Positions 3,997-55,266 of a DNA stretch of 64,000 nucleotides are shown here, piece after piece. A program made the translations under genes and the position numbers. This DNA comes from an uncultured Mycoplasmatota bacterium (lineage in GTDB: Bacteria; Bacillota_I; Bacilli_A; RF39; UBA660), in assembly GCA_947643405.1 (NCBI GenBank), contig CANRVY010000003.1, positions 3,072-67,071 on the forward strand. The letters run 5' to 3'. How positions within the stretch are numbered: position 1 is the stretch's first letter; every line of letters starts with the position of its first letter. Under the pieces are notes generated by a model that searched no databases, was not told where the DNA came from, and saw only the letters and a program-made list of their open reading frames with translations.

Positions 3997-5286
3997 TTAT
4001 TCTTTATATTCAAACTCTAAATCCAAAATACGAATGGTATCTCCTTCTAATGCTCCTAATTTTCTAAGTTCTTCATCAATTCCCATTTTACGAAGCTTTG
4101 TCGCAAAACGAAGTGCTGACTCATCTGTATTAAATTTGGTCATACGAAGCAATTTCTCTACTTTTTCTCCTCTTACTATCCAAACTCCATTTCCTGCGTT
4201 TTCAATTGAAAATGGTTTTTCTTCTTTGAATTTATATAAAACATGACTTTCAAATTTATTTTCTTCATAAAGAGGTTGTTTTGGAATTGTTTCTAATAAA
4301 TCAGCTAACGCAATAAGTACACTATCAATGTCCTTGTTCATAAGTGCTGAAATTGGATAAATAGGAACATTTATCTGTTTCATAAAACGTTTTAAATTCT
4401 CTTCTGCTCCTTCTACATCCATTTTATTGGCAATCACAATTCGTGGTTTTTCCATCATTTTTTCATGAAAGCTTTGCAATTCCTTATTAATAATTTGATA
4501 ATCTTCAATTGGGTCTCTACCTTCTACAGAACCCATATCTACAATATGAGCAATAATTCTTGTTCTTTCAATATGCTTTAAAAAACGGTCTCCAAGTCCT
4601 TCTCCTAAAGAGGCCCCTTCAATTAACCCAGGAAGGTCAGCAACGACAAAACTTCTGCCATCCTTCGTTTTTACAACCCCTAGATTTGGTTTTAAAGTCG
4701 TAAAATGATACTCTGCTATTTTAGGACGAGCTGCAGAAATCTTAGAAATAAATGTGGATTTCCCTACACTAGGAAGACCTACTAACCCAACATCTGCAAG
4801 CAATTTTAATTCTACCTTTACTTTTCTTTGTTCTCCTGGTTCTCCATTTTCTGCAAAAGATGGCGCTGGATTAGAGCGAGTCGCAAATGCAATATTTCCT
4901 CTTCCACCACGGCCACCTTTGGCAATAATTGCACGCTCATTTTTCTGAGTCAAATCTGCAACCACAAACCCAGTTTCTAAGTCAGTTACTACAGTTCCTG
5001 GAGGTACTTTAATAACAATATCTGCTGCTCCCGCTCCATGTTTTCCTTTTCCTTCTCCATTCTCACCCTTAGTTCCTTTGATTAATCTTTTATAACGTAA
5101 ATCTAGTAATGTATTTAATCCTTCATCCACTTCAAAAATGATGTCAGAACCTTTTCCACCATTTCCTCCATAAGGGCCTCCCATTTCCACATATTTTTCA
5201 CGGCGAAAAGCCATACAGCCATCTCCACCATTTCCAGCTAATAATTCTAATATGACTTCATCTACAAACATACTTTTCGCCTCCAA
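3997..5286 (-). CDS. obg: GTPase Obg (ObgE/CgtA)
   Basis: Glycine-rich Obg fold at the N-terminus (GGNGGKGSDIIF), GLPSVGKST G1 motif, and a C-terminal OCT domain. Confidence 0.95.
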   Translation of the reverse strand: MEAKSMFVDEVILELLAGNGGDGCMAFRREKYVEMGGPYGGNGGKGSDIIFEVDEGLNTLLDLRYKRLIKGTKGENGEGKGKHGAGAADIVIKVPPGTVVTDLETGFVVADLTQKNERAIIAKGGRGGRGNIAFATRSNPAPSFAENGEPGEQRKVKVELKLLADVGLVGLPSVGKSTFISKISAARPKIAEYHFTTLKPNLGVVKTKDGRSFVVADLPGLIEGASLGEGLGDRFLKHIERTRIIAHIVDMGSVEGRDPIEDYQIINKELQSFHEKMMEKPRIVIANKMDVEGAEENLKRFMKQINVPIYPISALMNKDIDSVLIALADLLETIPKQPLYEENKFESHVLYKFKEEKPFSIENAGNGVWIVRGEKVEKLLRMTKFNTDESALRFATKLRKMGIDEELRKLGALEGDTIRILDLEFEYKE

Positions 5287-43730: not shown

Positions 43731-44141
43731 CTATTTTTCATTTTTTTCTAATTTTGCTAGAACATCTTTTGTTACTTCAATTGCTTTTTCCCTAATCGCA
43801 TTTGCAGCATTTTCTAAAACTGGTGTTCCTTTTTCTACTGCATAGTCAACCAATTCTTCTGCCATTTCACCTATTTGTTTTGCTTTTTTTTTGGCAACTT
43901 TTAAAACTTTCTCTTTATCTAAATCAGCCATTGCTTCTTTAATTTCAAAAATTTTATTTTCTATTGTCTCTTTTACATCTTCTGCATCTATATCTTTTAA
44001 TTTACGAATCATATCATCAAACTTTTGCTTCAATTCTTTTCTTGTTTCACTTCCACTTTTAGGAGCAAACAAAATTCCAAGCCCCGCTCCTATTCCTGCT
44101 CCTAATAAAAACTTTCCTAATCCACTTTTTTTCTTACTCAT
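43731..44141 (-). CDS. YtxH-like membrane-anchored general stress protein
   Basis: GAGIGAGLGILFAP motif, then K/E-rich helices. Confidence 0.7.
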   Translation of the reverse strand: MSKKKSGLGKFLLGAGIGAGLGILFAPKSGSETRKELKQKFDDMIRKLKDIDAEDVKETIENKIFEIKEAMADLDKEKVLKVAKKKAKQIGEMAEELVDYAVEKGTPVLENAANAIREKAIEVTKDVLAKLEKNEK

Positions 44142-44421
44142 AAGTATCCTCACCTTTCTTTTTTCTCTTTCTAAATATAGTGTTTATTGTTCCTACAATT
44201 CCACTTATTACTCTATCACTTACTACATTTAATGTATCTGCAGTTCTATCTACAATTTCAAATAAGCCATTTAACTTTTTTACTTTTCTATCAACATCAT
44301 CGACTACTCTATCTACTTTGCCAACAATCTTAATCAGGCGTACTAGAAATACGATAGCTACTACTACTAATATAATCAAAAGAATATATAATATGATTGG
44401 TAATAATTCCATTGCTTCCAC
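44134..44421 (-). CDS. DUF948-family membrane protein
   Basis: N-terminal TM helix, then VD..D.KVKKL repeats. Confidence 0.65.
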   Translation of the reverse strand: MEAMELLPIILYILLIILVVVAIVFLVRLIKIVGKVDRVVDDVDRKVKKLNGLFEIVDRTADTLNVVSDRVISGIVGTINTIFRKRKKKGEDTYE

Positions 44422-45377
44422 TATTCTTCACCTTCCTTCTTTTCATACATAGAATCAATTAAATTAAATAAGTCACTCTCTGTTAAATTTGTATCATTTT
44501 CGAGTTCCTCACTTGGTTCACTACAAATCTTATCCATTTCGTCTTCAATCATATTTTGATTTGTATTTTCTATAAAGGTTTCTTCTTGAACAGTCTCTTC
44601 TTGCCCTGGTCTTTCATTAATTACCATTTCTTCTAAACCATCTACTTCTTCTATTAGTTCTAATTCTTTATTACGCTCTAGCCTGGAAGGTATGATATTA
44701 TTTTCTATTTCACTTGGTACTTCCTCATTTACTTCCAATTCATCAAACAAATCTAATTCCATATCTGTTTCTACATCTAAATCTTCAGTAATTGGAGGCA
44801 TATTCCCAAACAGTGTTGTTTCTAGCTCATCTTCTAAAGTCCCAAATGCTTTATTCCGAATATCATCTACAGTAAGTTCCTTTGGTCCATTACTTTGGGC
44901 CACCCTTTTTTTAGGAGCAATATCATCTTTCCTATAATTTTTATCTAATACTCCATATACAGGAGAGATAATTGGAGTTGGTTTAAACATTTTCTTTTCT
45001 TCTTTAAAAGTAGAAGCTGTATAAGCTGGTTTTTTACCTCCATATGCTTCTTTTCGAACAGGTTCTGCAGAGGACTTTTGAGCTGGCGTTTTTACAGGCT
45101 CTACTTTTTCCTCTTTTTTTTCTACATTAGAAGCTGTTGGTAATTTATCAAAATCTTTATCATCAAAAAATACTGGTGCTTTTGGCTTTTCCTCTGGTTT
45201 AACAATTTCAGTTTTAGTAACAGTTTCAGCATTCGAAGTACTTGAATCTTCTTTTTTAATAGGTGCTGAAACAGGAATTTCTACTTTTTGGATTTCTGTC
45301 TTAACAGGTGTTATTTCTTCTTCTACTTCTTCTGTAAACATATTTTTTACTTTTTCTAGAAATTTCATTATATTCAC
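44421..45377 (-). CDS. Acidic low-complexity protein (E/K/P-rich)
   Basis: 318 aa with a highly acidic, repetitive C-terminal half. Confidence 0.5.
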   Translation of the reverse strand: MNIMKFLEKVKNMFTEEVEEEITPVKTEIQKVEIPVSAPIKKEDSSTSNAETVTKTEIVKPEEKPKAPVFFDDKDFDKLPTASNVEKKEEKVEPVKTPAQKSSAEPVRKEAYGGKKPAYTASTFKEEKKMFKPTPIISPVYGVLDKNYRKDDIAPKKRVAQSNGPKELTVDDIRNKAFGTLEDELETTLFGNMPPITEDLDVETDMELDLFDELEVNEEVPSEIENNIIPSRLERNKELELIEEVDGLEEMVINERPGQEETVQEETFIENTNQNMIEDEMDKICSEPSEELENDTNLTESDLFNLIDSMYEKKEGEE

Positions 45378-45383
45378 CTCTAC

Positions 45384-46001
45384 TTAATTATCACTTTCTG
45401 CTTCTACTACTTTCTTATCATTAAAGTCACTACCTGTAGAATTAAACAGATCATAACTTTCTTCTTTATTGGTAAAGTATTCATCATCTAACATTAATTT
45501 AATCACATTATGATTAAATTTTACAGTTGACAAAATATAAGAAGCATTTAAAATGACATTATTAATATCTTTCTTATCAACAAGTGTTTCTATTCTTGCA
45601 TAGTTATATGCAAAGCGAACCAAATACTTTTTATCTTGTTCTATAATTTCTACATAGCCATCTTTGTTTTTTGTATGAATAATTTTTGAATAGAAAGCTT
45701 GTTCATTTTTTTGATAAGTTACTTTCTTCTGATAATAATAACTAATAGCATCAATATATAAATAGTAATAATTTCCATTGGAATATAATTTATCGTTGAA
45801 TTCATCAGTATCAATATAGATAACACCTCTAGGAATATAATATTTATATCCCTTTCCAACTCTGTTATAAAGCTTATTTTCTTTGGATAAGATTACATTT
45901 ATAGTATTGTCAATACTACTAGTATCTATTCGTACCATTGTACAACCTGTTACTAAAAATACACAAGTTAATAAAGCTAATAATAAGATTACTTTTTTCA
46001 T
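45384..46001 (-). CDS. Lipoprotein
   Basis: Signal peptide with lipobox (LVTGC). Confidence 0.65.
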   Translation of the reverse strand: MKKVILLLALLTCVFLVTGCTMVRIDTSSIDNTINVILSKENKLYNRVGKGYKYYIPRGVIYIDTDEFNDKLYSNGNYYYLYIDAISYYYQKKVTYQKNEQAFYSKIIHTKNKDGYVEIIEQDKKYLVRFAYNYARIETLVDKKDINNVILNASYILSTVKFNHNVIKLMLDDEYFTNKEESYDLFNSTGSDFNDKKVVEAESDN

Positions 46002-46080
46002 CTTTCCACCTGCTTACTATGATTATATCAAAAATTTAAGAAATACAAAAGAAAAAAGAAAAGAGATGTGTAAAAATGTG

Positions 46081-46716
46081 TTAAATTTCTTTTGTAACAT
46101 GAATTTTATAAATTGGAAATCCCATAGACGAAAATTTTTTTTCATATTCTGTTTCAACATTATCTTCTATATCATCCTGATGTAAATTAAGAGAAATATC
46201 ATCAAATTTAAATCCAAACTCATTAAATGAAATTAGTGAATATTCAAATAAATGACGATTATCTGTTTTCATTTCTAGTTTCATAGGGCCTTTAAAAATT
46301 GCTTCATAGCGTTTCAAAAAAATTGGACTAGTTAATCTCCTATGAGTATGTCTTTTTTTTGGCCAAGGATCTGAAAAGTTTAAATACAATAAATCGATCT
46401 CATGATCAAATATTTTTTCGATTTCAGTTGCGTCCATTCTAATCAGTAATAAATTAGGTAATTTTTCTTGTTCTATTTTTTCTACGACTTTCACCATAAC
46501 ACTATCAAATTTTTCAATTCCAATAAAATTAATATTTGGATTTCTTTTGGCCTTCTCTACAATAAAATTCCCTTTCCCAGTACCTATTTCAATATAAATT
46601 GGATTGGCATTATGAAATAAATTTTGATAATTTCCTCTTTCTTTTTCTGGATTATGAATAATATAATTAGAAGCCTCTATTCTTTCATGAGCTCCTTTTA
46701 CGTGCTTTAATCTCAT
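46081..46716 (-). CDS. trmB: tRNA (guanine46-N7)-methyltransferase
   Basis: SAM motif (IEIGTGKGNF) and NFSDPWPKKRH. Confidence 0.95.
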   Translation of the reverse strand: MRLKHVKGAHERIEASNYIIHNPEKERGNYQNLFHNANPIYIEIGTGKGNFIVEKAKRNPNINFIGIEKFDSVMVKVVEKIEQEKLPNLLLIRMDATEIEKIFDHEIDLLYLNFSDPWPKKRHTHRRLTSPIFLKRYEAIFKGPMKLEMKTDNRHLFEYSLISFNEFGFKFDDISLNLHQDDIEDNVETEYEKKFSSMGFPIYKIHVTKEI

Positions 46717-46799
46717 GTAATCACCATAATTATTATATCATGTCACGAAATGAAAATAAACTCATATAATGAATTAGAACAAATAAAGGAGTGTGTAAA

Positions 46800-47123
46800 A
46801 TGAAAAAAGATAGAAACTGTGGAAGTGGCGCTAATGTTGCTTATAATCCAGTTTATCCTACTTACCCAATGATGGGAGGCCCTGCTATGCCAGGTATCAT
46901 GCCAGGAATTCCTAATATGATGCCAATGCCTACAATGCCAAATTATAATTATACAACAAGCACAGGAAATAACGATTACAGTAATATAGAAGGACAAATT
47001 AATAATTTAAATAGTCAAATTAATAATTTAGAACGTCGAATCACAAGATTAGAAAATATGGTTAATAATAGTTCAACTTCTTACAATACAAAGTATAATG
47101 CATCAAATTATCAAATGATGTAA
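46800..47123 (+). CDS. Small P/M/Y/N-rich low-complexity protein with a C-terminal coiled coil (possible spore-coat-like protein)
   Basis: AAAGGAGTG RBS 7 nt before the ATG. PMMGGPAMPGIMPGIPNMMPMPTMPNYNY repeats. Confidence 0.55.
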   Translation: MKKDRNCGSGANVAYNPVYPTYPMMGGPAMPGIMPGIPNMMPMPTMPNYNYTTSTGNNDYSNIEGQINNLNSQINNLERRITRLENMVNNSSTSYNTKYNASNYQMM

Positions 47124-47186
47124 ATTTAGTTAAAATATCAATAGTATGTTCAAATGGAATATACTATTTTTTATACTATTAAAAGA

Positions 47187-47222
47187 GTTATAAAAAAATC
47201 ATCAAGAAATATTCTTCATGAT
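47187..47222. terminator. Bidirectional terminator between convergent genes
   Basis: ATCATCAAGAA...TTCTTCATGAT stem flanked by A and T runs. Confidence 0.5.
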
Positions 47223-47230
47223 TTTACATT

Positions 47231-48265
47231 TTACTTTTTCACAAACAATTTAGGCTTGGCTAATTCTTTATTTCCAATTTCAAAAGATTTTAGATACTGT
47301 CTTAGAAAATATACCTTATCAAAATTATTTGTAAAAATCATATCACACAATTCTAAAGATTGCTGCAAATATATTTCACCATAAAAATTCAAGCTTGAAT
47401 AACGATCTTTATTTATCCTTCTTCTTTTCTGAACCATATCATCATCATATCCTGTACTTTTAGAATATTGTAATAAATGAACAAATAAATTAACATTGTT
47501 TTGCCAAATGACAGGTTCTAAAGTTCCATTAGGACATCTAAATTCAATTGTATTTTTTGTTTGAAAACAATCAAAATTACTCACATTATTAAAATTTACA
47601 GCTTGATATCTTTGATGAGAAACTTTTCTAAGAATATCATTTAAAGTTAATGAATCACATTCCAACATACCTTGATAATCTTTCCAAAAGTTTTTTGCCA
47701 TTGGTTCTGCATACTTTTCCATACTAGGTCTTGCACTTAAATAATCTCCATATACAAACCGATAAATAATATTTTCATACACAGACCATAACTTGATAAA
47801 ATTCTTCCAAGATTCCGTTTTATTTCCTAAAACTTGGGTTCCTACATGAATATGCCCTCCTGAATGTTTATCGATTGATGCATGTTTATAAACAATTTGA
47901 CAAACTTTTTTGAGTTGACTCCAAGAATCAGATACATCTTTTAATATAGGAGAATTAATCTCTGCTCCATTATGTAAAGAACCATCTCCTCTTAATTGCC
48001 AAGCCTCATCTAAGCGATATTCTTCCAGTTTCTGTTCAATTCGCTTTCTAACCGCATTTTCAAATTCTAATTCCAATCCAAAAGTAACTTTATCATCAAA
48101 TCCTAAGTGACTTCTTAATTCTAAATAACAATTTTCTACATAATATAATAAATCTTGTAATTCTATTCCACTCATACTAGATAAAGAATCATTTGCTCCA
48201 GGCTTTATAAAATTAAAAATTGATGCATCTACAATTTCATTTGGTTTTTTAATATTTCCTAGCAT
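47231..48265 (-). CDS. Amidoligase_2-family enzyme (glutamine synthetase-like amidoligase)
   Basis: Family motifs TFGLELEFE, EINSPIL and GGHIHVG. Confidence 0.7.
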   Translation of the reverse strand: MLGNIKKPNEIVDASIFNFIKPGANDSLSSMSGIELQDLLYYVENCYLELRSHLGFDDKVTFGLELEFENAVRKRIEQKLEEYRLDEAWQLRGDGSLHNGAEINSPILKDVSDSWSQLKKVCQIVYKHASIDKHSGGHIHVGTQVLGNKTESWKNFIKLWSVYENIIYRFVYGDYLSARPSMEKYAEPMAKNFWKDYQGMLECDSLTLNDILRKVSHQRYQAVNFNNVSNFDCFQTKNTIEFRCPNGTLEPVIWQNNVNLFVHLLQYSKSTGYDDDMVQKRRRINKDRYSSLNFYGEIYLQQSLELCDMIFTNNFDKVYFLRQYLKSFEIGNKELAKPKLFVKK

Positions 48266-48270
48266 ATCAA

Positions 48271-49107
48271 TTACCTCATTAACCTATCATAGTTTTCTCT
48301 TTTGATTTCTAGTTTTTTTGTTAAAACTGGAATATCAATTGGTTGATATCTTTCTTTAATTCTCGATACACAATTTTCAAAATCAAAACTTGAACATTCA
48401 GTTCTAATATAAAATGGCAATAATTCTCCTAGACCAGTTACACAAATATATAATATAGTTATTAAAATATTATCAGAAGAAGATTCTCTCACAAAAATAT
48501 AGTCCTCTTTATCTTCATGGTAAATAATGGCTTGGAAATAATTTTCTTTTTCAATATCCTCCTCAGAAACATTATTATTAGATTCTTGAATGGAAGAAAA
48601 AGGTGCACCTAATATATCTTGTAAAGTCATTTTCTCTTTTTCAAATAATCCTCTTATTTCTTCTTCTGTTAATCCTTTTAATTTATACTTTTCCACAGTT
48701 CTAGTGTAAAAACCATCATTTGATTTTTCCCATTTTCCGTAAAAGTATAACATATCTGAATCTCCAGAAAATTCATTATATTGTTCTTCATATCTGATGT
48801 TTCCTAAACTATCAAATTCTTTCATAATGTTTAAATTCTGTTGTTGTATATCACGATAGAATGGACAACTTCCAAGAAGTTTAAATCCACCTGCGATTAA
48901 CCCTGCTGTCAATACATAAGGTGCAACTAACTGCATAGCACGTAATGATATTTTTAAATTTCTTATAGTTCTAATTTGTAAATTTGAAAATTTTGAAAAT
49001 TTTATTTTATTTTCCAAATTTTCTATATCTTTTTTCATTTGTTGTAAAAATTTTTTTTGTTCTAATCTCTTTCTAGCATTTTCATCACAAATTTTTCCAC
49101 TGCTCAT
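48271..49107 (-). CDS. Hypothetical protein with one TM helix (island cargo)
   Basis: GGAAGGGG RBS before the ATG at 49107. No recognizable domain. Confidence 0.5.
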   Translation of the reverse strand: MSSGKICDENARKRLEQKKFLQQMKKDIENLENKIKFSKFSNLQIRTIRNLKISLRAMQLVAPYVLTAGLIAGGFKLLGSCPFYRDIQQQNLNIMKEFDSLGNIRYEEQYNEFSGDSDMLYFYGKWEKSNDGFYTRTVEKYKLKGLTEEEIRGLFEKEKMTLQDILGAPFSSIQESNNNVSEEDIEKENYFQAIIYHEDKEDYIFVRESSSDNILITILYICVTGLGELLPFYIRTECSSFDFENCVSRIKERYQPIDIPVLTKKLEIKRENYDRLMR

Positions 49108-49349
49108 AATTCTAACCCCTTCCATTTCTCAAAGTAAAATACTTTAGGAATTTTTTCATTAAAAGCAGCATATAAAATAACTATTGCTAACTTTGACTTC
49201 TAAGTTTCCAATTAATGGTAAAATTTGACAAACAAAAAAAAAGTGGTATTATAAAAACCACTCAGAGGAAAATCCTAAAGTATTTTACTATAAGAAAAAC
49301 ATTTTATAAAAAGCTCACAAAGTATACTGCTTTGTGAACTTTTTTAATA

Positions 49350-50495
49350 CTATTTATTTTTTGATGATAATACCAATACAGCAGGATTTACAACTTCTTT
49401 TTCTTCTTCTGTAATACCAAATTTTTTATTCCAATATTGTCTGAATTCTATTCCCCTTACACTAAAATGAGCAATCATACTAGAAACAGCACCTGCCATG
49501 TATCCTGTCAATCCCATTTCTATATATATTTTTTCTACCTCTTCACAAGTTGCACCTTCTTGTAATTTTTTCAAACATAATAAGGCTGTTTCTACAATAC
49601 AACAAGAATATGCATCATTTGTATTACAATCCACACATTGCATCCATTCTTCTGCATCTTCTTTTTTCACGAAAGCCAAACCATCTTTCATAATTGTGTA
49701 TTTCTTTTTCTTAGCTTCTAAATCAGCATGTTCTTTCTCTTGATTTCTAATGGTTTCCGCTTTTATCCTACGATCCCTTTGTTTATCCACAATGGTATCC
49801 CCAAACATTTTTCTTCTTGCTTCTTCTATTTTTTCGGGATCTCTTCTATCATATCCATATTCAATATATGGATTAGAATATAATTCTTCTCCTGTTTCTT
49901 CTAGTCTAATAGATGAAATAGCAGAACCATATCCAATAAATGGTATTCCATAACATCCTATTTCTACATTTGTAAAAAAATTTACATTTCTTAATACATC
50001 AGTTTCTTCTTGCGCTGCTCCATACCACCATCCTTGATAAGAAACTCTCTCTCCTACATGTTGTTTTAATGCTTGAAACATTTTAAAAGCATTAGCTTCT
50101 TTATTATGTTCTGCTACATACTCTTCTAATGTGACATCATCTTCTTCCATTGGCATAAAATTACCATATTCAGTCATACATACTGATGATATTTGATTAC
50201 ATTTCATATTGCTGATTAATATTTCATACTTTGGCATATTTCCAAAACGACTTTGAACTTCTTCAATAGTTAATCTTTTTCCAATATAGAACCAATTTGT
50301 TCTATTATGAATTTTACCCTCAAATTGTTCCCCATCTATGTCTATAAAATCCTTTTCATAGAATCGAAAACCAATTGCGCGTTTCTTCAATTCTACTTTC
50401 ATAGGATCGCTATGTCCAATTTCTACACTGCTAGTTTCTGTCATCAATAAGCCTGGGTATAAATACTCCACATATTTTTTTGTAGTCTTTTCCAT
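49350..50495 (-). CDS. Hypothetical Cys-rich protein (island cargo)
   Basis: AAGGGGGA RBS. 381 aa. CVDC...SCC cluster near the C-terminus. Confidence 0.5.
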   Translation of the reverse strand: MEKTTKKYVEYLYPGLLMTETSSVEIGHSDPMKVELKKRAIGFRFYEKDFIDIDGEQFEGKIHNRTNWFYIGKRLTIEEVQSRFGNMPKYEILISNMKCNQISSVCMTEYGNFMPMEEDDVTLEEYVAEHNKEANAFKMFQALKQHVGERVSYQGWWYGAAQEETDVLRNVNFFTNVEIGCYGIPFIGYGSAISSIRLEETGEELYSNPYIEYGYDRRDPEKIEEARRKMFGDTIVDKQRDRRIKAETIRNQEKEHADLEAKKKKYTIMKDGLAFVKKEDAEEWMQCVDCNTNDAYSCCIVETALLCLKKLQEGATCEEVEKIYIEMGLTGYMAGAVSSMIAHFSVRGIEFRQYWNKKFGITEEEKEVVNPAVLVLSSKNK

Positions 50496-50700
50496 TCATA
50501 ATTCCCCCTTAACTTTCTTAAAGTTTTTCACTTTGAGAATTTTTTATAAACAGTCAAGATTATAAATATTAAAAAAGATATGACTACAATATATAAATGG
50601 TGAAATTTGACAAATCATTTTTTTTGTTATAGAATAACGTCTAAGTTGTGAACGCAACAAGTCTTTTAATCTCAAAGTGAAAAACTTTGGGATTTTATTT

Positions 50701-51780
50701 TTACCTAAAATTGCACATAGGATTTAAGCTATTCATCAATCTTACTTTGTTATCAAAACTTGGATGTACATATCGATCTAATGTAATTTTCACATTCGAA
50801 TGACCTAAAATTTCGCTTAACGTTTTTGGATCACAACCACTTTCTATACATCTCGTTGCAAAGGTATGTCTTAATGCATGAAAATTATATTCATTAATAT
50901 TAATTGACTTCATAATACTTTTATAATGATTTGTATAACTTCTTGGTTCAATAAAGTCTTCTGTTCCTGTTAGAAAAAAGCACAATTCTCCCTTTTTTAA
51001 TTTTTCTAATTTTGAAATTAAAAAGTTTGGAATGGGAATATTTCTAATAGATGATATAGATTTAGGCTCATCTAATATTACAATTGTTTTATTTTTTATA
51101 TTTTTATTATCATTTTTTACACGTATCAAAGTCTTCTCAACCCGAATAACATTATTTTCTAAATCAATATGTTCCCATTTTAAACCACATAACTCACCAA
51201 TTCTAAGACCTGTATATAAACATAACAGAATTCCCATACTTTCTTCTGTTGTTGAACAGCTTAATTTTTGTTCTAATAATAATTGATGCTCTTTGGTAAG
51301 TATCTGAATTTCTTTTTTCGGAATCTTAGGCATCGAAATACTGATATCTACATTATGATATTTTAATATTTGTTGTAACATAATAAGTATGTCTTTTACT
51401 GTTTTTGGCGCTAGTCCTTGACTTAACAATTTCTCAGTAAATTCATTAACAATATTCTTATTAATTTGTTTTCGTTTATATTTTCCAAATGCTGGTATAA
51501 GATGTGCATAAGCCATATATTCATAGTTGGAATAAGATGATTTTTTACAAGATATTTTAACACTTCTAAGCCAATTATAGATATCTCCACTAAATAAAGT
51601 TTTATCAATAGGAATTTCTATTTTTAATATTTCTCTATATTTTCTCAATACCTCTTCTTCTGTTTTTGCATAAATAAATCCATAATCTGTTTTACCATCC
51701 TCTTTTATTCCTTTTTTATATTTTATAAAATATCTCCCATCCTTTCTCAAATAAATTTTTTCTTGCTTCTTATTTTCCAT
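50701..51780 (-). CDS. int: Tyrosine recombinase/phage-type integrase
   Basis: C-terminal catalytic region HALRHTFATR...LGHSNVKITLDRYVH with the R..H..R..Y signature. Confidence 0.9.
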   Translation of the reverse strand: MENKKQEKIYLRKDGRYFIKYKKGIKEDGKTDYGFIYAKTEEEVLRKYREILKIEIPIDKTLFSGDIYNWLRSVKISCKKSSYSNYEYMAYAHLIPAFGKYKRKQINKNIVNEFTEKLLSQGLAPKTVKDILIMLQQILKYHNVDISISMPKIPKKEIQILTKEHQLLLEQKLSCSTTEESMGILLCLYTGLRIGELCGLKWEHIDLENNVIRVEKTLIRVKNDNKNIKNKTIVILDEPKSISSIRNIPIPNFLISKLEKLKKGELCFFLTGTEDFIEPRSYTNHYKSIMKSININEYNFHALRHTFATRCIESGCDPKTLSEILGHSNVKITLDRYVHPSFDNKVRLMNSLNPMCNFR

Positions 51781-51963
51781 AAATATTTCTCCTTTCGAGT
51801 AAATATCATACAGAAAATAAATATAATTACTAAAAAAAGTGCTAATTTAATAACACTTTTATCCATCTATGACCACATCACCAACTTGAAATCCTTTATA
51901 TACTTCTTCTGTAATAATGATTGTCATTTCCTCAAACAAATATTCTTACCCATATTCTGCTTT

Positions 51964-53859
51964 TTAAAAGCGTCCGCCTCCTGAGCCTCCACCAAACGAT
52001 CCTCCTCCTCCAGAGAAGCCTCCACCAAATCCGCCTCCTGAGGAATTAGAAGAATTTGCAATTGATTGTGCTGAATAAGCATTATTCATTGCTGTTGTTA
52101 CAGTAGAAGACATAATTCGATTAAATACCATCATATCTCTCATCGTTCTCATACTATAATGAATATCAATTAAATCTGCATCATTAAATTCATTAATTCT
52201 AAGCTGCATTGTCTTAGAAAGTTTATCTGCACATCCAAGACTTACTGCATAAACTAAATATTTTTCCCATAAAACAATCTCTGGTAAGTCTTTTTTGTCC
52301 ATTGTACCAAAATCTTCCATAAATTTCTTTAAAGCTTTCCACTTTAGATAATGTTCATTTCCCTTTTGGGTCTTTTTGGTAAATGATAAAAAGTAAATTA
52401 ATGATACAAGAGCTAATACAAATAAAATAATACCAAATACCAAAATATAATTGAATGCTAGCACAGCAAGTGTTAATCCAAGTACTGAATAAAGACTAGA
52501 TTTTAATTTAATTCCTGTTTTATTTTCATAAAAATCTTCATTCTTTGCCTCTATCATTGCCATATTTTTCCACTTATTAAAATTATTGATAAAAGAAGAA
52601 TAACCAGATTTTGCTTTTTTCTTAAGCTCTTTTAAAGTAATTTCATTTTCTTTAAAAATCAACTTAATTAATTGTCTATCTGAATCCGTCATCTCAGTAT
52701 CATTTTCATGATATACAAGTTTATAATCTTTTTTATCTAATGGTTCAAAAGTCACTACTTTTTTATAAATTAAATTTAATAAACAAGCTGACAAATCATC
52801 ATTTCTAATATTTTGATGAAATAAATATCCGACTGTTGAAGGATTATAGTCTGCTGGGAAATCTCTAAAATATTGAGTTTTAAAAGTTGATTCATATTCT
52901 TTATCATGCTTTTTATAAACATAGTACACTAAAAATCCGAATCCAATTATCCAAGCTACTCCTAAAACTCCAGAAACAACTGTCATAAACAATGTTATTT
53001 TTTTATCTCTCGCTACCTGTTTTCTTGCTTCTTCTCTTTTTTGATTGGCAATTTCTGCTTTTTCAGTTTCCACTTCTACAATTGTATCAAGAGCTTCTAC
53101 ATGAGAAAACTTAGTAGAACCTTTCACTGCTTCTTTATCAAATACAAAACGAGTATCTATTGCTGTATTCGCATACAAGTCATCAACAGTAATAATAATG
53201 TGATCGGTTCCATCTAATTCTATATTTCCAACTAATGGTCCATGAGCATATCCTTTTAATAAATTTTGATTATTTGGAATATAAATATCTGCTTTAAAAT
53301 GATGTATGCTTTCTCTAAAGTTATCATTAAATATATTCCAACCTACTTCTGCGACATCTTCATGAACAACTGCCATATTTTTAATAATGTATTCTAAATA
53401 GAAAAAATGCTTTTTTGAAGAGGGATTATAAATACGATAACTAACTCCTGAACTTGTTTTATTTTCTGTATAAACTCCAAAGTCTCCTGCTTCTGCATGA
53501 TAAGTTTTTGTAAATTTTGTTCCACTAGTTTCCATATTGTTCCAAGAAATAGAATCTGTATAAGGAATGGCTCTTATTTGAATAAGCTTTATGTCAGTCC
53601 CATTATAAATAGCACTTCCATTAAAAGACTCTTTATCCCCAGTGAAATTGGACGCTAAAATGTTCTCAAAATCAATATCGCGATCCATTCCATTAAATGT
53701 GCCATTCATTAAAAAGGCCTCTCTTACATATAAATCTCCATTGTCTAATACTGTGACATGCATATTAAAATTTTCAATTCCATAGTCACTTGCTTTTACT
53801 CCCACAGGAATAAGAATGCAAGTAATGAAAAAGATAAAGACTCCAAATATTTTCTTCAT
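51964..53859 (-). CDS. DUF2207-family membrane protein with a C-terminal Gly-rich tail
   Basis: Signal peptide, TM helices, and the terminal SGGGFGGGFSGGGGSFGGGSGGGRF. Confidence 0.7.
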   Translation of the reverse strand: MKKIFGVFIFFITCILIPVGVKASDYGIENFNMHVTVLDNGDLYVREAFLMNGTFNGMDRDIDFENILASNFTGDKESFNGSAIYNGTDIKLIQIRAIPYTDSISWNNMETSGTKFTKTYHAEAGDFGVYTENKTSSGVSYRIYNPSSKKHFFYLEYIIKNMAVVHEDVAEVGWNIFNDNFRESIHHFKADIYIPNNQNLLKGYAHGPLVGNIELDGTDHIIITVDDLYANTAIDTRFVFDKEAVKGSTKFSHVEALDTIVEVETEKAEIANQKREEARKQVARDKKITLFMTVVSGVLGVAWIIGFGFLVYYVYKKHDKEYESTFKTQYFRDFPADYNPSTVGYLFHQNIRNDDLSACLLNLIYKKVVTFEPLDKKDYKLVYHENDTEMTDSDRQLIKLIFKENEITLKELKKKAKSGYSSFINNFNKWKNMAMIEAKNEDFYENKTGIKLKSSLYSVLGLTLAVLAFNYILVFGIILFVLALVSLIYFLSFTKKTQKGNEHYLKWKALKKFMEDFGTMDKKDLPEIVLWEKYLVYAVSLGCADKLSKTMQLRINEFNDADLIDIHYSMRTMRDMMVFNRIMSSTVTTAMNNAYSAQSIANSSNSSGGGFGGGFSGGGGSFGGGSGGGRF

Positions 53860-53929
53860 ACAATCACCCTTACATTCATTATATCATGTTTTAATTTTTA
53901 TAATACAAAAAAATTAGAAAATATAAATT

Positions 53930-54280
53930 CTAATCTTTTGGCTTAAATATAAGAGAAAGAAAGAAGGAAAAGATAATTGCAGATGTAATTCCAGAAGCTG
54001 TTAAATTAAACATGCCCATAAAAAGAGCCATTAATCCCTGATCATAAGCCATATCCATAGCTCCATGGGAAAGCAAATGCCCAAAACTTGTAATTGGAAC
54101 TAAAGCTCCACCACCTGCCCATAAAATAATTTTATCATAAATGCTAAAGGTATCTAAGAATGCTCCTACAATGACAAAAATTGTAGTAACATGTCCAGGT
54201 GTTAATTTTGTATTATCTAATATCATTTGTCCAAGCAGACAAACGAATCCACAAAATAGAAATGAATTAACAAAAATCAT
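53930..54280 (-). CDS. spoVAE: Stage V sporulation protein AE (SpoVAEB)
   Basis: 116 aa, SpoVAC/SpoVAEB-family membrane protein. Confidence 0.8.
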   Translation of the reverse strand: MIFVNSFLFCGFVCLLGQMILDNTKLTPGHVTTIFVIVGAFLDTFSIYDKIILWAGGGALVPITSFGHLLSHGAMDMAYDQGLMALFMGMFNLTASGITSAIIFSFFLSLIFKPKD

Positions 54281-55266
54281 TCTACCACCTCCAAACTAAT
54301 AGCATGGGCAATTGCTGGTATAGATAACTTTTGATTTACCATAGTAGGAGAATGTAGTGCTCCTGTTGCTACCAACAAAATTCTATGATATTCTTTCTTT
54401 TTCATCTTGTTTAAAATATAACTATAAGTAACAAGTGGTGCACAAGCTGGACCACTTCCTCCTGCATAAACTGGCTGTTTTTCTCTATCATAAATCATAC
54501 AAGCAGTATCATTATAATTTTTTAGTTCTATTCCATATTCAGTTTTCATATATTCTTTTAGAATATCTCTACCATAAACTCCCAAATCCCCCGTTAATAT
54601 TAAATCATAGTAGCCAATTTCTCTTTTGGTATCTCTTAAATGTTTAAAGATAGTATCTGCTGCTGCTGGTGCCATCACTGCTCCCATATGATAAACATCT
54701 TTTATCCCTAGATCTACTACACTTCCAACAGTAGAACTATCTACCTTAATTTGTTCTTTATTACTAGATAAATAAGCACTTGCACTTCCAGTAGTTGTAA
54801 AAGTTGCCGTTTTAGGTTTTGGTCCACCATATTCAACTGGATAACGGAATTGTTTCTCTGCTGCATTATTATGAGAGCTTACTGCACAAATACAATTCTT
54901 GATTTGCTTATTTTCTACCATATTAGCCCCGATTATAAGTCCCTCTACGCTTGTTGCGCAAGCATTATAAACCCCCATAAAAGGAATGCCTAATCTACTA
55001 GCTGCATAACTAGAAGAAGCAATCTGATTCAATAAATCTCCAGATAAAAATAGATCAATATCAAATTTTGTCTTTCCTATTTTAGAAAGTAGAATATCAA
55101 CACTATCTTCTATCATTTTGCTTTCTGCTTGTTCAAACGTATCCATATTGATATAAAAATCATCATAAGTTGCATCATAATAATTTTTCAGAGGTCCTTT
55201 TTGTTCATATGGCCCTGCTACTGTACTTGTCGCATTGATATAAACATTATTATATCTAAATGTCAT
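54277..55266 (-). CDS. spoVAD: Stage V sporulation protein AD
   Basis: Thiolase-like fold and a SpoVAD-like sequence. Confidence 0.85.
   Translation of the reverse strand: MTFRYNNVYINATSTVAGPYEQKGPLKNYYDATYDDFYINMDTFEQAESKMIEDSVDILLSKIGKTKFDIDLFLSGDLLNQIASSSYAASRLGIPFMGVYNACATSVEGLIIGANMVENKQIKNCICAVSSHNNAAEKQFRYPVEYGGPKPKTATFTTTGSASAYLSSNKEQIKVDSSTVGSVVDLGIKDVYHMGAVMAPAAADTIFKHLRDTKREIGYYDLILTGDLGVYGRDILKEYMKTEYGIELKNYNDTACMIYDREKQPVYAGGSGPACAPLVTYSYILNKMKKKEYHRILLVATGALHSPTMVNQKLSIPAIAHAISLEVVE

Follow-up and report, generated by a model that had tools for sequence, protein, structure and literature searches.

Phase variation by promoter inversion is a well-known mechanism. In Escherichia coli, the fimS segment, 314 bp long and bounded by 9-bp repeats, is served by two small recombinases, FimB and FimE. 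In Clostridioides difficile, RecV acts on elements of roughly 150-200 bp with dissimilar repeats, and its gene is unlinked to most of its targets. Cre recognizes loxP sites with an 8-bp spacer, of which lox511 and lox2272 are heterospecific variants. RecV-dependent switches have been described at cwpV, flgB, cmrRST and pdcB (PMC5903667, PMC9286219, PMC7446863), and promoter invertons of gut Bacteroidales have been charted in PhaseFinder-type surveys (PMC8748976, PMC11892184, PMC11602134). Here we analyze 64,000 nt (the window) of contig CANRVY010000003.1 (positions 3,072 to 67,071 of the forward strand; assembly GCA_947643405.1) from an uncultured Mycoplasmatota bacterium. With a probability of roughly 85%, four adjacent genes and the DNA between them form a phase-variation locus of the fimS/RecV type, in which a tyrosine recombinase would flip two independent promoter invertons, switch A and switch B, both OFF in the window. 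The controlled genes, encoding proteins that we call p381 and p278 and an Amidoligase_2 enzyme, are uncharacterized.

The locus resembles fimS in that a recombinase gene lies directly upstream of a short promoter segment bounded by inverted repeats, with predicted ON/OFF control. It differs in its segments of 115-131 bp, in arms of 19-29 nt built on a palindromic AAAGT-N5-ACTTT core, in its single 359-aa recombinase similar to the integrase (Int) of Tn1549, in its two to four tandem switches and in its unrelated cargo. With the RecV system it shares a Firmicutes host, one tyrosine recombinase for several short invertible elements and the predominance of one orientation in assemblies, whereas here the recombinase gene is adjacent, the cores follow one consensus and the spacers are pair-specific; the likeness described here is one of arrangement. 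As in the Bacteroidales, invertible promoters occur in a gut commensal and their alternative orientations are detectable in metagenomes, but those invertons belong to another phylum and promoter type, often depend on global serine or Tsr-type tyrosine recombinases and mostly control capsule and surface cargo. Palindromic half-sites, with an asymmetric spacer that would set orientation and limit recombination to matching sites, recall Cre/loxP; here, in contrast, a natural set of at least 13 spacers is used for inversion and the variable spacer is 5 nt long (possibly a 7-bp overlap region).

Paired recombination cores around two predicted promoters

A sequence-only reading of the window had described four same-strand genes between trmB and the DUF2207/spoVA region as a mobile or phage-derived islet, in which an integrase accompanied cargo genes with shared hairpins in their 5' untranslated regions (5'-UTRs). 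The list of open reading frames (ORFs) places the four genes on the minus strand just where that reading had put them, and Pfam confirms its integrase and Amidoligase_2 calls. It was also right to link the duplicated cassettes to the integrase. The supposed regulatory hairpins, however, are recombination cores flanking invertible promoters, and the supposed antisense promoters are these switches in the OFF state. For comparison, 71 related loci (L001-L071) were taken from public genomes and metagenomes. The features of the locus are as follows.

50701-51780, minus strand: tyrosine recombinase, 359 aa (Phage_integrase, 95.4 bits), predicted invertase of switches A and B
50670-50691: switch A distal (recombinase-side) core, CAAAGT-GAAAA-ACTTTG on the plus strand (arm of repeat pair I20)
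50539-50669: switch A invertible segment, 131 bp, with a flipped counterpart in L037
50607-50635, plus strand: switch A predicted promoter, TTGACA-17-TAGAAT, 11/12 consensus positions, pointing away from p381 (OFF)
50520-50538: switch A proximal core (I20), 24-42 nt upstream of the p381 start codon
49350-50495, minus strand: p381, 381 aa, no family above cut-off
49315-49337: A/T-flanked hairpin separating the p381 stop codon from switch B, from the plus-strand terminator scan
49269-49297: switch B distal arm (repeat pair I3), the copy absent from the sequence-only reading
49154-49268: switch B invertible segment, 115 bp; the ON junction of the homologous switch occurs in L045
49225-49252, plus strand: switch B predicted promoter, TTGACA-16-TATTAT with extended TG, 11/12 consensus positions, pointing away from p278 (OFF)
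49125-49153: switch B proximal arm (I3), 18-46 nt upstream of the p278 start codon
48271-49107, minus strand: p278, membrane protein, 278 aa, with the start of the public gene-call product
47231-48265, minus strand: Amidoligase_2 enzyme, 344 aa (PF12224, 54.2 bits)
46791-47123, plus strand: p110, 110-aa protein, convergent to the amidoligase gene

The three hairpin copies noticed earlier are real (49127-49156, 50516-50545 and 50670-50699; repeat family D1), and the fourth, at 49269-49297, completes two inverted-repeat pairs in the repeat scan. The switch A arms, 50520-50538 and 50670-50688, are 19 nt long, 100% complementary and 131 nt apart. Those of switch B, 49125-49153 and 49269-49297, are 29 nt long, 90% complementary and 115 nt apart. 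Repeats of these lengths did not arise in any of 500 dinucleotide shuffles of either intergenic region. Each copy consists of a palindromic AAAGT-N5-ACTTT core around an asymmetric 5-nt spacer, with half-sites reading (C/T)(C/A)AAAGT ... ACTTT(G/A)(G/A). The spacers within a pair are reverse-complementary: TTTTC/GAAAA in switch A and AAAAT/ATTTT in switch B. Judged by its sequence, the layout is that of lox-/FRT-type tyrosine recombinase sites inverted around a promoter, i.e., of a promoter inverton.

Spacer complementarity extends to the related loci. A scan that selected cores by reverse-complementary spacers yielded 22 pairs, whose members all lie 139-155 nt from each other, measured between their starts. 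When the cores of the switch-bearing loci were listed with no such filter, the same pairing appeared; the exceptions were hairpins of terminators, incomplete contigs and some isolated cores. The pairs use at least 13 different spacer combinations, and homologous switches carry compensatory spacer changes (AAAGC-TTTTC/GAAAA-GCTTT in L009; TATTC/GAATA in L010); the chance of a complementary 5-mer is 1/1024 per pair. Well-formed cores with no partner within about 200 nt were seen in L071 (5136, spacer TGAAT), in L065 and L066 (8559, TTTAA) and in L038 (5716, ATTCA). The last lies at a contig end and may begin a further switch. L071 also has, 2.1 kb from its lone core, an ATTCA core with one mismatch; it lies within the amidoligase gene and may be due to chance.

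The TTGACA elements of the sequence-only reading are real and lie on the plus strand, antisense to the cargo genes. The 17-nt spacing to TAGAAT was confirmed, and that to TATTAT or ATTATA, given as 17 or 18 nt, is 16 nt to TATTAT. These sigma-70-like elements are the two best promoter-like sites within 5.4 kb. Both overlap a shared upstream motif, also noticed earlier, which is present as 22 nt of 91% identity at 49211-49232 and 50593-50614 (repeat family D17). In the flipped forms described below, the 11/12 sites point towards the genes; in the window, they point away.

Both predicted promoters of the window run directly into terminator-like hairpins, as found by a terminator scan of the plus strand. 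Downstream of promoter A, the distal core and its T-rich tail score as a terminator (50668-50694), and downstream of promoter B lies the 49315-49337 hairpin. By eye, the latter is also terminator-like on the minus strand, where it reads AAAAAGTTCACAAAGCAGTATACTTTGTGAGCTTTTT. These elements suggest how the locus could work. The recombinase would bind the palindromic half-sites of the four lox-like cores and synapse a pair, and strand exchange inside the spacers would flip the 131-bp segment of switch A or the 115-bp segment of switch B. In the OFF state, transcription from promoter A would end at the distal core hairpin and its T-run, and that from promoter B at the 49315-49337 hairpin. In the ON state, each promoter would read through the proximal core, which has no T-run, to the ribosome-binding site, with a predicted leader of about 75 nt, so that switch A would drive p381 and switch B the p278-amidoligase operon. 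The differing spacers (GAAAA in A, ATTTT in B) would bar recombination between A and B. Since the spacers differ, the two switches are expected to flip independently, giving four expression states in a clonal population.

Several smaller features lie within the invertible segments. The promoter spacers contain homopolymers, T8 in promoter A (50616-50623) and A9 in promoter B (49234-49242). The switch B run varies in length among strains, being T8 in L007 and T9 in both L008 and the window, and the Logan contigs L029 and L034 end within it. Such runs between the -35 and -10 elements could form a second, slipped-strand layer of phase variation that alters promoter spacing. Inside switch A, a weaker site of 10/12 consensus positions (TAGTCA-16-TATAAT, 50586-50559, minus strand) faces the gene in the OFF orientation; relatives keep its GTAGTCA part and not its -10 element. 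It may give basal p381 expression. Between the -10 element of promoter A and the distal core (50641-50662), an element AAGTTG-N6-CAAC(A/G)AGTCTTTT recurs in nine homologous A-type switches. RNAalifold folds it into a 5-pair hairpin with a compensatory change at no pair, and a structural role for this GTTG...CAAC hairpin was set aside for lack of compensatory base pairs. The element could act as an attenuator or be bound by an accessory protein. Rfam families have no match in the region, evidence against a riboswitch or leader of a known kind.

Alternative orientations in public assemblies

Switch A occurs in the flipped orientation in L037, a mouse-gut contig whose p381 is 94% identical to that of the window and whose arms are identical. 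The interior is inverted exactly at the 19-nt arms, the first 144 nt show 0 mismatches to L032, an OFF contig, when the latter is inverted in silico, and TTGACA-17-TAGAAT reads into p381. For switch B, the first 40 nt of L045 (p278 74% identical) equal the predicted ON junction, which is absent from the OFF form. This junction puts the crossover within AAAGTATTTTAC; the crossover lies inside the central 12 nt.

Complete inversions are seen in two further lineages. L010 and L039, long contigs of one lineage, differ only by inversion of the 128-bp interior upstream of the p278-amidoligase operon: the interiors agree at 128/128 positions when one is reverse-complemented and at 28/128 when they are compared directly, and the flanks are collinear. 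In a human-gut species whose recombinase homolog, P0192, is 56% identical to ours, six independent assemblies comprise four ON forms (L066, L067, L068 and L070) and two OFF forms (L065 and L069). The interiors of L065 and L066 are identical at 136/136 positions when flipped as opposed to 58/136 directly.

Such elements, about 175 bp long, bounded by inverted repeats, present in two copies and built on palindromic cores, could also be taken for miniature inverted-repeat transposable elements (MITEs) or palindromic repressor-binding sites with no relation to the integrase. We find this scarcely credible. The elements keep a constant position relative to orthologous genes across species, their spacers are pair-specific, and inversion took place with unchanged flanks in L010/L039 and L065/L066. 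Besides switches A and B, the 64-kb window holds no core pairs, and the recombinase is the only regulator gene in the locus.

Contig ends point to inversion as well. De Bruijn assemblers break contigs where the two orientations are mixed, at the points where they branch, and seven contigs from different samples start or end exactly at predicted branch points. L007, L043 and L044 start at the inner edge of the switch A proximal core. L001 belongs to the same strain as the window; it ends at 49273, immediately before the switch B arms begin to diverge. L063 and L064 break off at the distal branch point of switch B, and L042 starts at the proximal one, where the ON and OFF forms become identical. 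Other contig ends lie off the branch points and are not explicable by inversion (the start of L006 at 49187 and several ends within homopolymer runs); strain single-nucleotide polymorphisms or run-length variation are more likely causes.

A number of observations weigh against an active pair of switches. The switch B ON evidence of L045 rests on two distinguishing bases only. L010 and L039 carry the switch with no recombinase gene within their available flanks. The ON form was not seen in the window's exact strain, whose contigs L001-L006 are OFF wherever they reach the switches, and assemblies of closer relatives are almost all OFF, which also fits a rarely used or decaying switch. Finally, in the distal arm of switch B the outer half-site departs from the consensus, reading ATAGT and not AAAGT. 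This degenerate half-site is present in every B-type switch examined (window 49277-49291; L009, L013, L028 and L040). Its retention across species means that the degeneracy is not a fresh lesion, and the conserved asymmetry might bias the direction or rate of switching.

Two further irregularities were noted in the assemblies. In L008, the switch B interior is interrupted at about 5207-5256 by sequence unrelated to the window (...GGATAGTGTAAAATGGTTTGGGGA...), and a close reverse-complement match to it lies in L022 at about 330-395, directly upstream of the p381 homolog; the shared sequence looks like the end of an insertion sequence (IS). L048 and L050-L052 were considered as a flip and rejected: they diverge from L046 in mid-interior with unrelated sequence (AAAATTCCGGTTTCTACTTGAAATTTGGCA), indicating another rearrangement or an insertion. 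These four contigs come from one study and share the same starting base, with the divergence in their first 30 nt.

The locus could thus have inverton ancestry and be locked or decayed in the window strain, its genes being silent or expressed from weaker fixed promoters. Such a state would fit the uniformly OFF orientation of the contigs from this very strain, the imperfect outer half-site in switch B, the gene-facing 10/12 site inside switch A and the putative IS end in L008. Against it, the switch A arms are perfect (19/19), the recombinase ORF is uninterrupted with its tyrosine-recombinase motifs kept, a strain with identical arms (L037) carries the ON form, and L001 ends on the switch B branch point; the degenerate half-site, moreover, is conserved across species. 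We consider a locked switch distinctly improbable. Because a 94%-identical relative has identical arms and one contig of the window's strain breaks at a branch point, we infer that the window strain still switches.

A resident locus with its own recombinase

In addition to Phage_integrase, the recombinase matches Phage_int_SAM_3 (34 bits). Its nearest solved structure is Tn1549 Int (6EN0, E = 1.3e-19), and NCBIfam invertase models match weakly (23-25 bits against a cut-off of about 221). Its motifs, TGLRIGE (R193), KSISSIR (K240), HALRHT (H301 and R304), LGHSN (H327) and DRYVH (Y337), contain the residues that we take to be catalytic.

Recombinase homologs adjoin the same kind of switch in 10 locus types (L008, L009, L011, L013, L028, L038, L040, L046, L065 and L071). 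Loci in which p381 (L012 and L014-L025) or p278 (L053-L059) follows a fixed forward promoter have neither the repeats nor the recombinase. The number of switches rises to three in L011 and four in L038. In L011, the extra switches face ORFs read from their translations as a nitroreductase and a sigma factor; in L038, a CrtO-family gene (Pfam) is faced. Since the extra switches face other genes, the switch is a portable module. This linkage suggests that the adjacent recombinase is the catalyst and that one enzyme probably serves both switches of the window. The earlier idea of co-regulated cargo is therefore half right: a shared recombinase is probable, while joint control is not expected, as the differing spacers predict independent switching.

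The mobile-islet reading, with shared 5'-UTR hairpins and antisense promoters co-regulating a three-gene cargo, had several points in its favor. The integrase is of the Tn1549/phage type, the proximal cores lie in what would be the 5'-UTRs, and in distant taxa the recombinase and cargo occur in other contexts (L011, L038 and L046). In L014 and L020, p381 homologs lie among mobile-element-like ORFs, as read from translations alone. However, the gene order DUF2207-recombinase-p381-p278-amidoligase-p110-trmB is kept in L009, L013 and L040 at 77-87% protein identity, and the flanking housekeeping proteins are as diverged as those of the supposed islet. At the P0192 locus, where recombinase identity is down to 56%, the recombinase gene still adjoins spoVAC/AD/AEB and precedes a p278-like/amidoligase operon. 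No empty site came to light: the locus is present in all recovered relatives that have the DUF2207/trmB context (L009, L013, L040 and L007 together with L008). By the criterion that the sequence-only reading itself had set, the same genes in the same context at this divergence refute the mobile islet.

Other signs of an islet were likewise missing or had another explanation. No tRNA gene was found in 44000-55000. Of the 55 families of direct repeats detected, the 20 largest include none that flanks 47150-51830. The lack of an Rfam match also speaks against shared 5'-UTR elements, as does the arrangement of the 'hairpins' in inverted pairs whose spacers are complementary and whose intervening DNA occurs naturally in both orientations. 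A mobile or phage-derived islet is thus very improbable; judged from gene order, the inverton locus is syntenic across diverged relatives and not recently inserted. At its edge, p110 is rich in Pro, Met and Asn, has a C-terminal coiled coil and is 91-94% identical among relatives. It has no significant family match and apparently lies outside the switch locus.

Cargo proteins and what switching may mean

The p278 gene had been called at 284 aa. The gene is real, but its likelier start is at 49107 rather than 49125. This start follows the ribosome-binding site GGAAGGGG and gives the 278-aa product recorded in public gene calls, in which the 284-aa form has no record. The amidoligase start codon lies 5 nt past the p278 stop codon. 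p278 was also described as having a single transmembrane (TM) segment, whereas it has two hydrophobic helices: its model comprises a basic N-terminal coiled coil, TM helix 1 (about residues 60-78), a beta domain of about 120 aa, TM helix 2 (about 213-234) and C-terminal helices. In this model, the beta domain would be outside the cell by the positive-inside rule. A fold search gave no structural relative.

The amidoligase is well above the PF12224 cut-off of 22 bits, matches PHROG amidoligase families and contains the motifs TFGLELEFE (residue 61) and GGHIHVG (residue 136) noted earlier. Enzymes of the Amidoligase_2 family have been described as amidoligases that resemble glutamine synthetase and occur in phages and mobile elements (Iyer et al. 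2009, as cited in PMC11318856), and an association of amidoligase with GGCT has been reported for prophages (PMC11318856). In line with this, the P0192 locus, as seen in L065, has two p278 paralogs, the amidoligase and a GGACT (gamma-glutamyl cyclotransferase-like) gene. In contrast to the phage and mobile enzymes, the amidoligase here is chromosomal, always follows a p278-like membrane protein and is under an invertible promoter. An Amidoligase_2 gene follows p278, directly or past a p278 paralog, in every locus long enough to tell, so the pair is a recurrent one. From these associations, p278 and the amidoligase could tentatively form a membrane-associated, ATP-dependent module for amide bonds of the gamma-glutamyl type that modifies the cell envelope, a proposal that we consider doubtful.

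p381 is not obligatorily linked to the amidoligase. Under a fixed promoter, p381 occurs without the amidoligase pair in L012 and L014-L025, and the pair occurs without p381 in L046, L071 and L065. L014 and L020, which are Clostridium sp. CAG:762-like, carry 56%-identical p381 homologs behind a fixed TTGACA-17-TATTAT promoter; L012, L023 and L024 are Acholeplasma sp. CAG:878-like and related to them. As read from translations, the p381 neighbors in L014 and L020 look like large serine recombinases, a MobV-like relaxase, and XRE and Bro-N-like proteins.

The earlier label 'Cys-rich' is weak for p381, with 9 Cys in 381 aa. The protein is cytoplasmic. Its N-terminal region (residues 1-215) is rich in beta structure and is followed by a long helix and, at the C terminus, a helical domain; the fold is well predicted and has no structural match. 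Against Tad4 (PF25186), p381 itself scores 23.8 bits, under the cut-off of 25. In its family, however, 29/30 members match Tad4 at E <= 0.001 (best E = 4.6e-21), and the C-terminal 100 or so residues align to the full-length profile. Because of these family-wide matches, homology of the p381 C-terminal domain to Tad4 is likely. Phages use Tad4 to inhibit Thoeris, through binding to its TIR protein ThsB (PMC13402655; bioRxiv 10.1101/2025.06.06.658234). It is small (113 positions in the Pfam profile), whereas p381 has a large extra N-terminal region, is chromosomal and under an invertible promoter, and has no phage homologs in INPHARED or BFVD. The neighbors in L014 and L020 suggest that the Tad4-domain protein also travels on integrative mobilizable elements. 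Through its Tad4-like domain, p381 may be a protein-binding modulator.

The cargo does not consist of prophage structural remnants: by tblastn against 50,697 phage records, p381 and p278 gave nothing and the amidoligase only two matches of about 24% identity. With p381 as the query, Foldseek found no BFVD entry at E <= 0.001. Searches of PDB sequences, with a profile in the case of p381, were uninformative for p381 and the amidoligase. Viral contigs scanned for the exact pattern of proximal arm and ribosome-binding site gave 0 matches. NCBIfam had no match for the cargo proteins, and PADLOC had no significant match for any of the four proteins, with only two sub-threshold p278 fragments.

Taken together, one recombinase might stochastically and independently toggle two functions. 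The first would be a chromosomal Tad4-domain protein that turns TIR/Thoeris-type immunity of the cell itself, or tolerance towards mobile elements, on and off; the second would be the p278-amidoligase module, joined by GGACT in some relatives, as a reversible gamma-glutamyl-type modifier of an envelope component, affecting recognition by phages or the host. The family would also supply a natural set of at least 13 mutually orthogonal lox-like sites for one enzyme. This combined picture is speculative and rather unlikely.

What had looked like an integrase islet is re-annotated as a phase-variation locus of uncultured gut Bacilli. To our knowledge, invertons in this group are much less studied than those in Bacteroidales or C. 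difficile. The ON/OFF ratio of each switch is measurable in existing metagenomes. The strict core consensus with its many pair-specific spacers amounts to a compact natural toolkit of recombinase and sites, which could serve orthogonal switches in Firmicutes. Its uncharacterized cargo and its natural set of heterospecific lox-like sites make the locus noteworthy, and its organization marks out two separate functions, that of the p278/Amidoligase_2 pair and that of p381, as sufficiently costly or risky to be bet-hedged.

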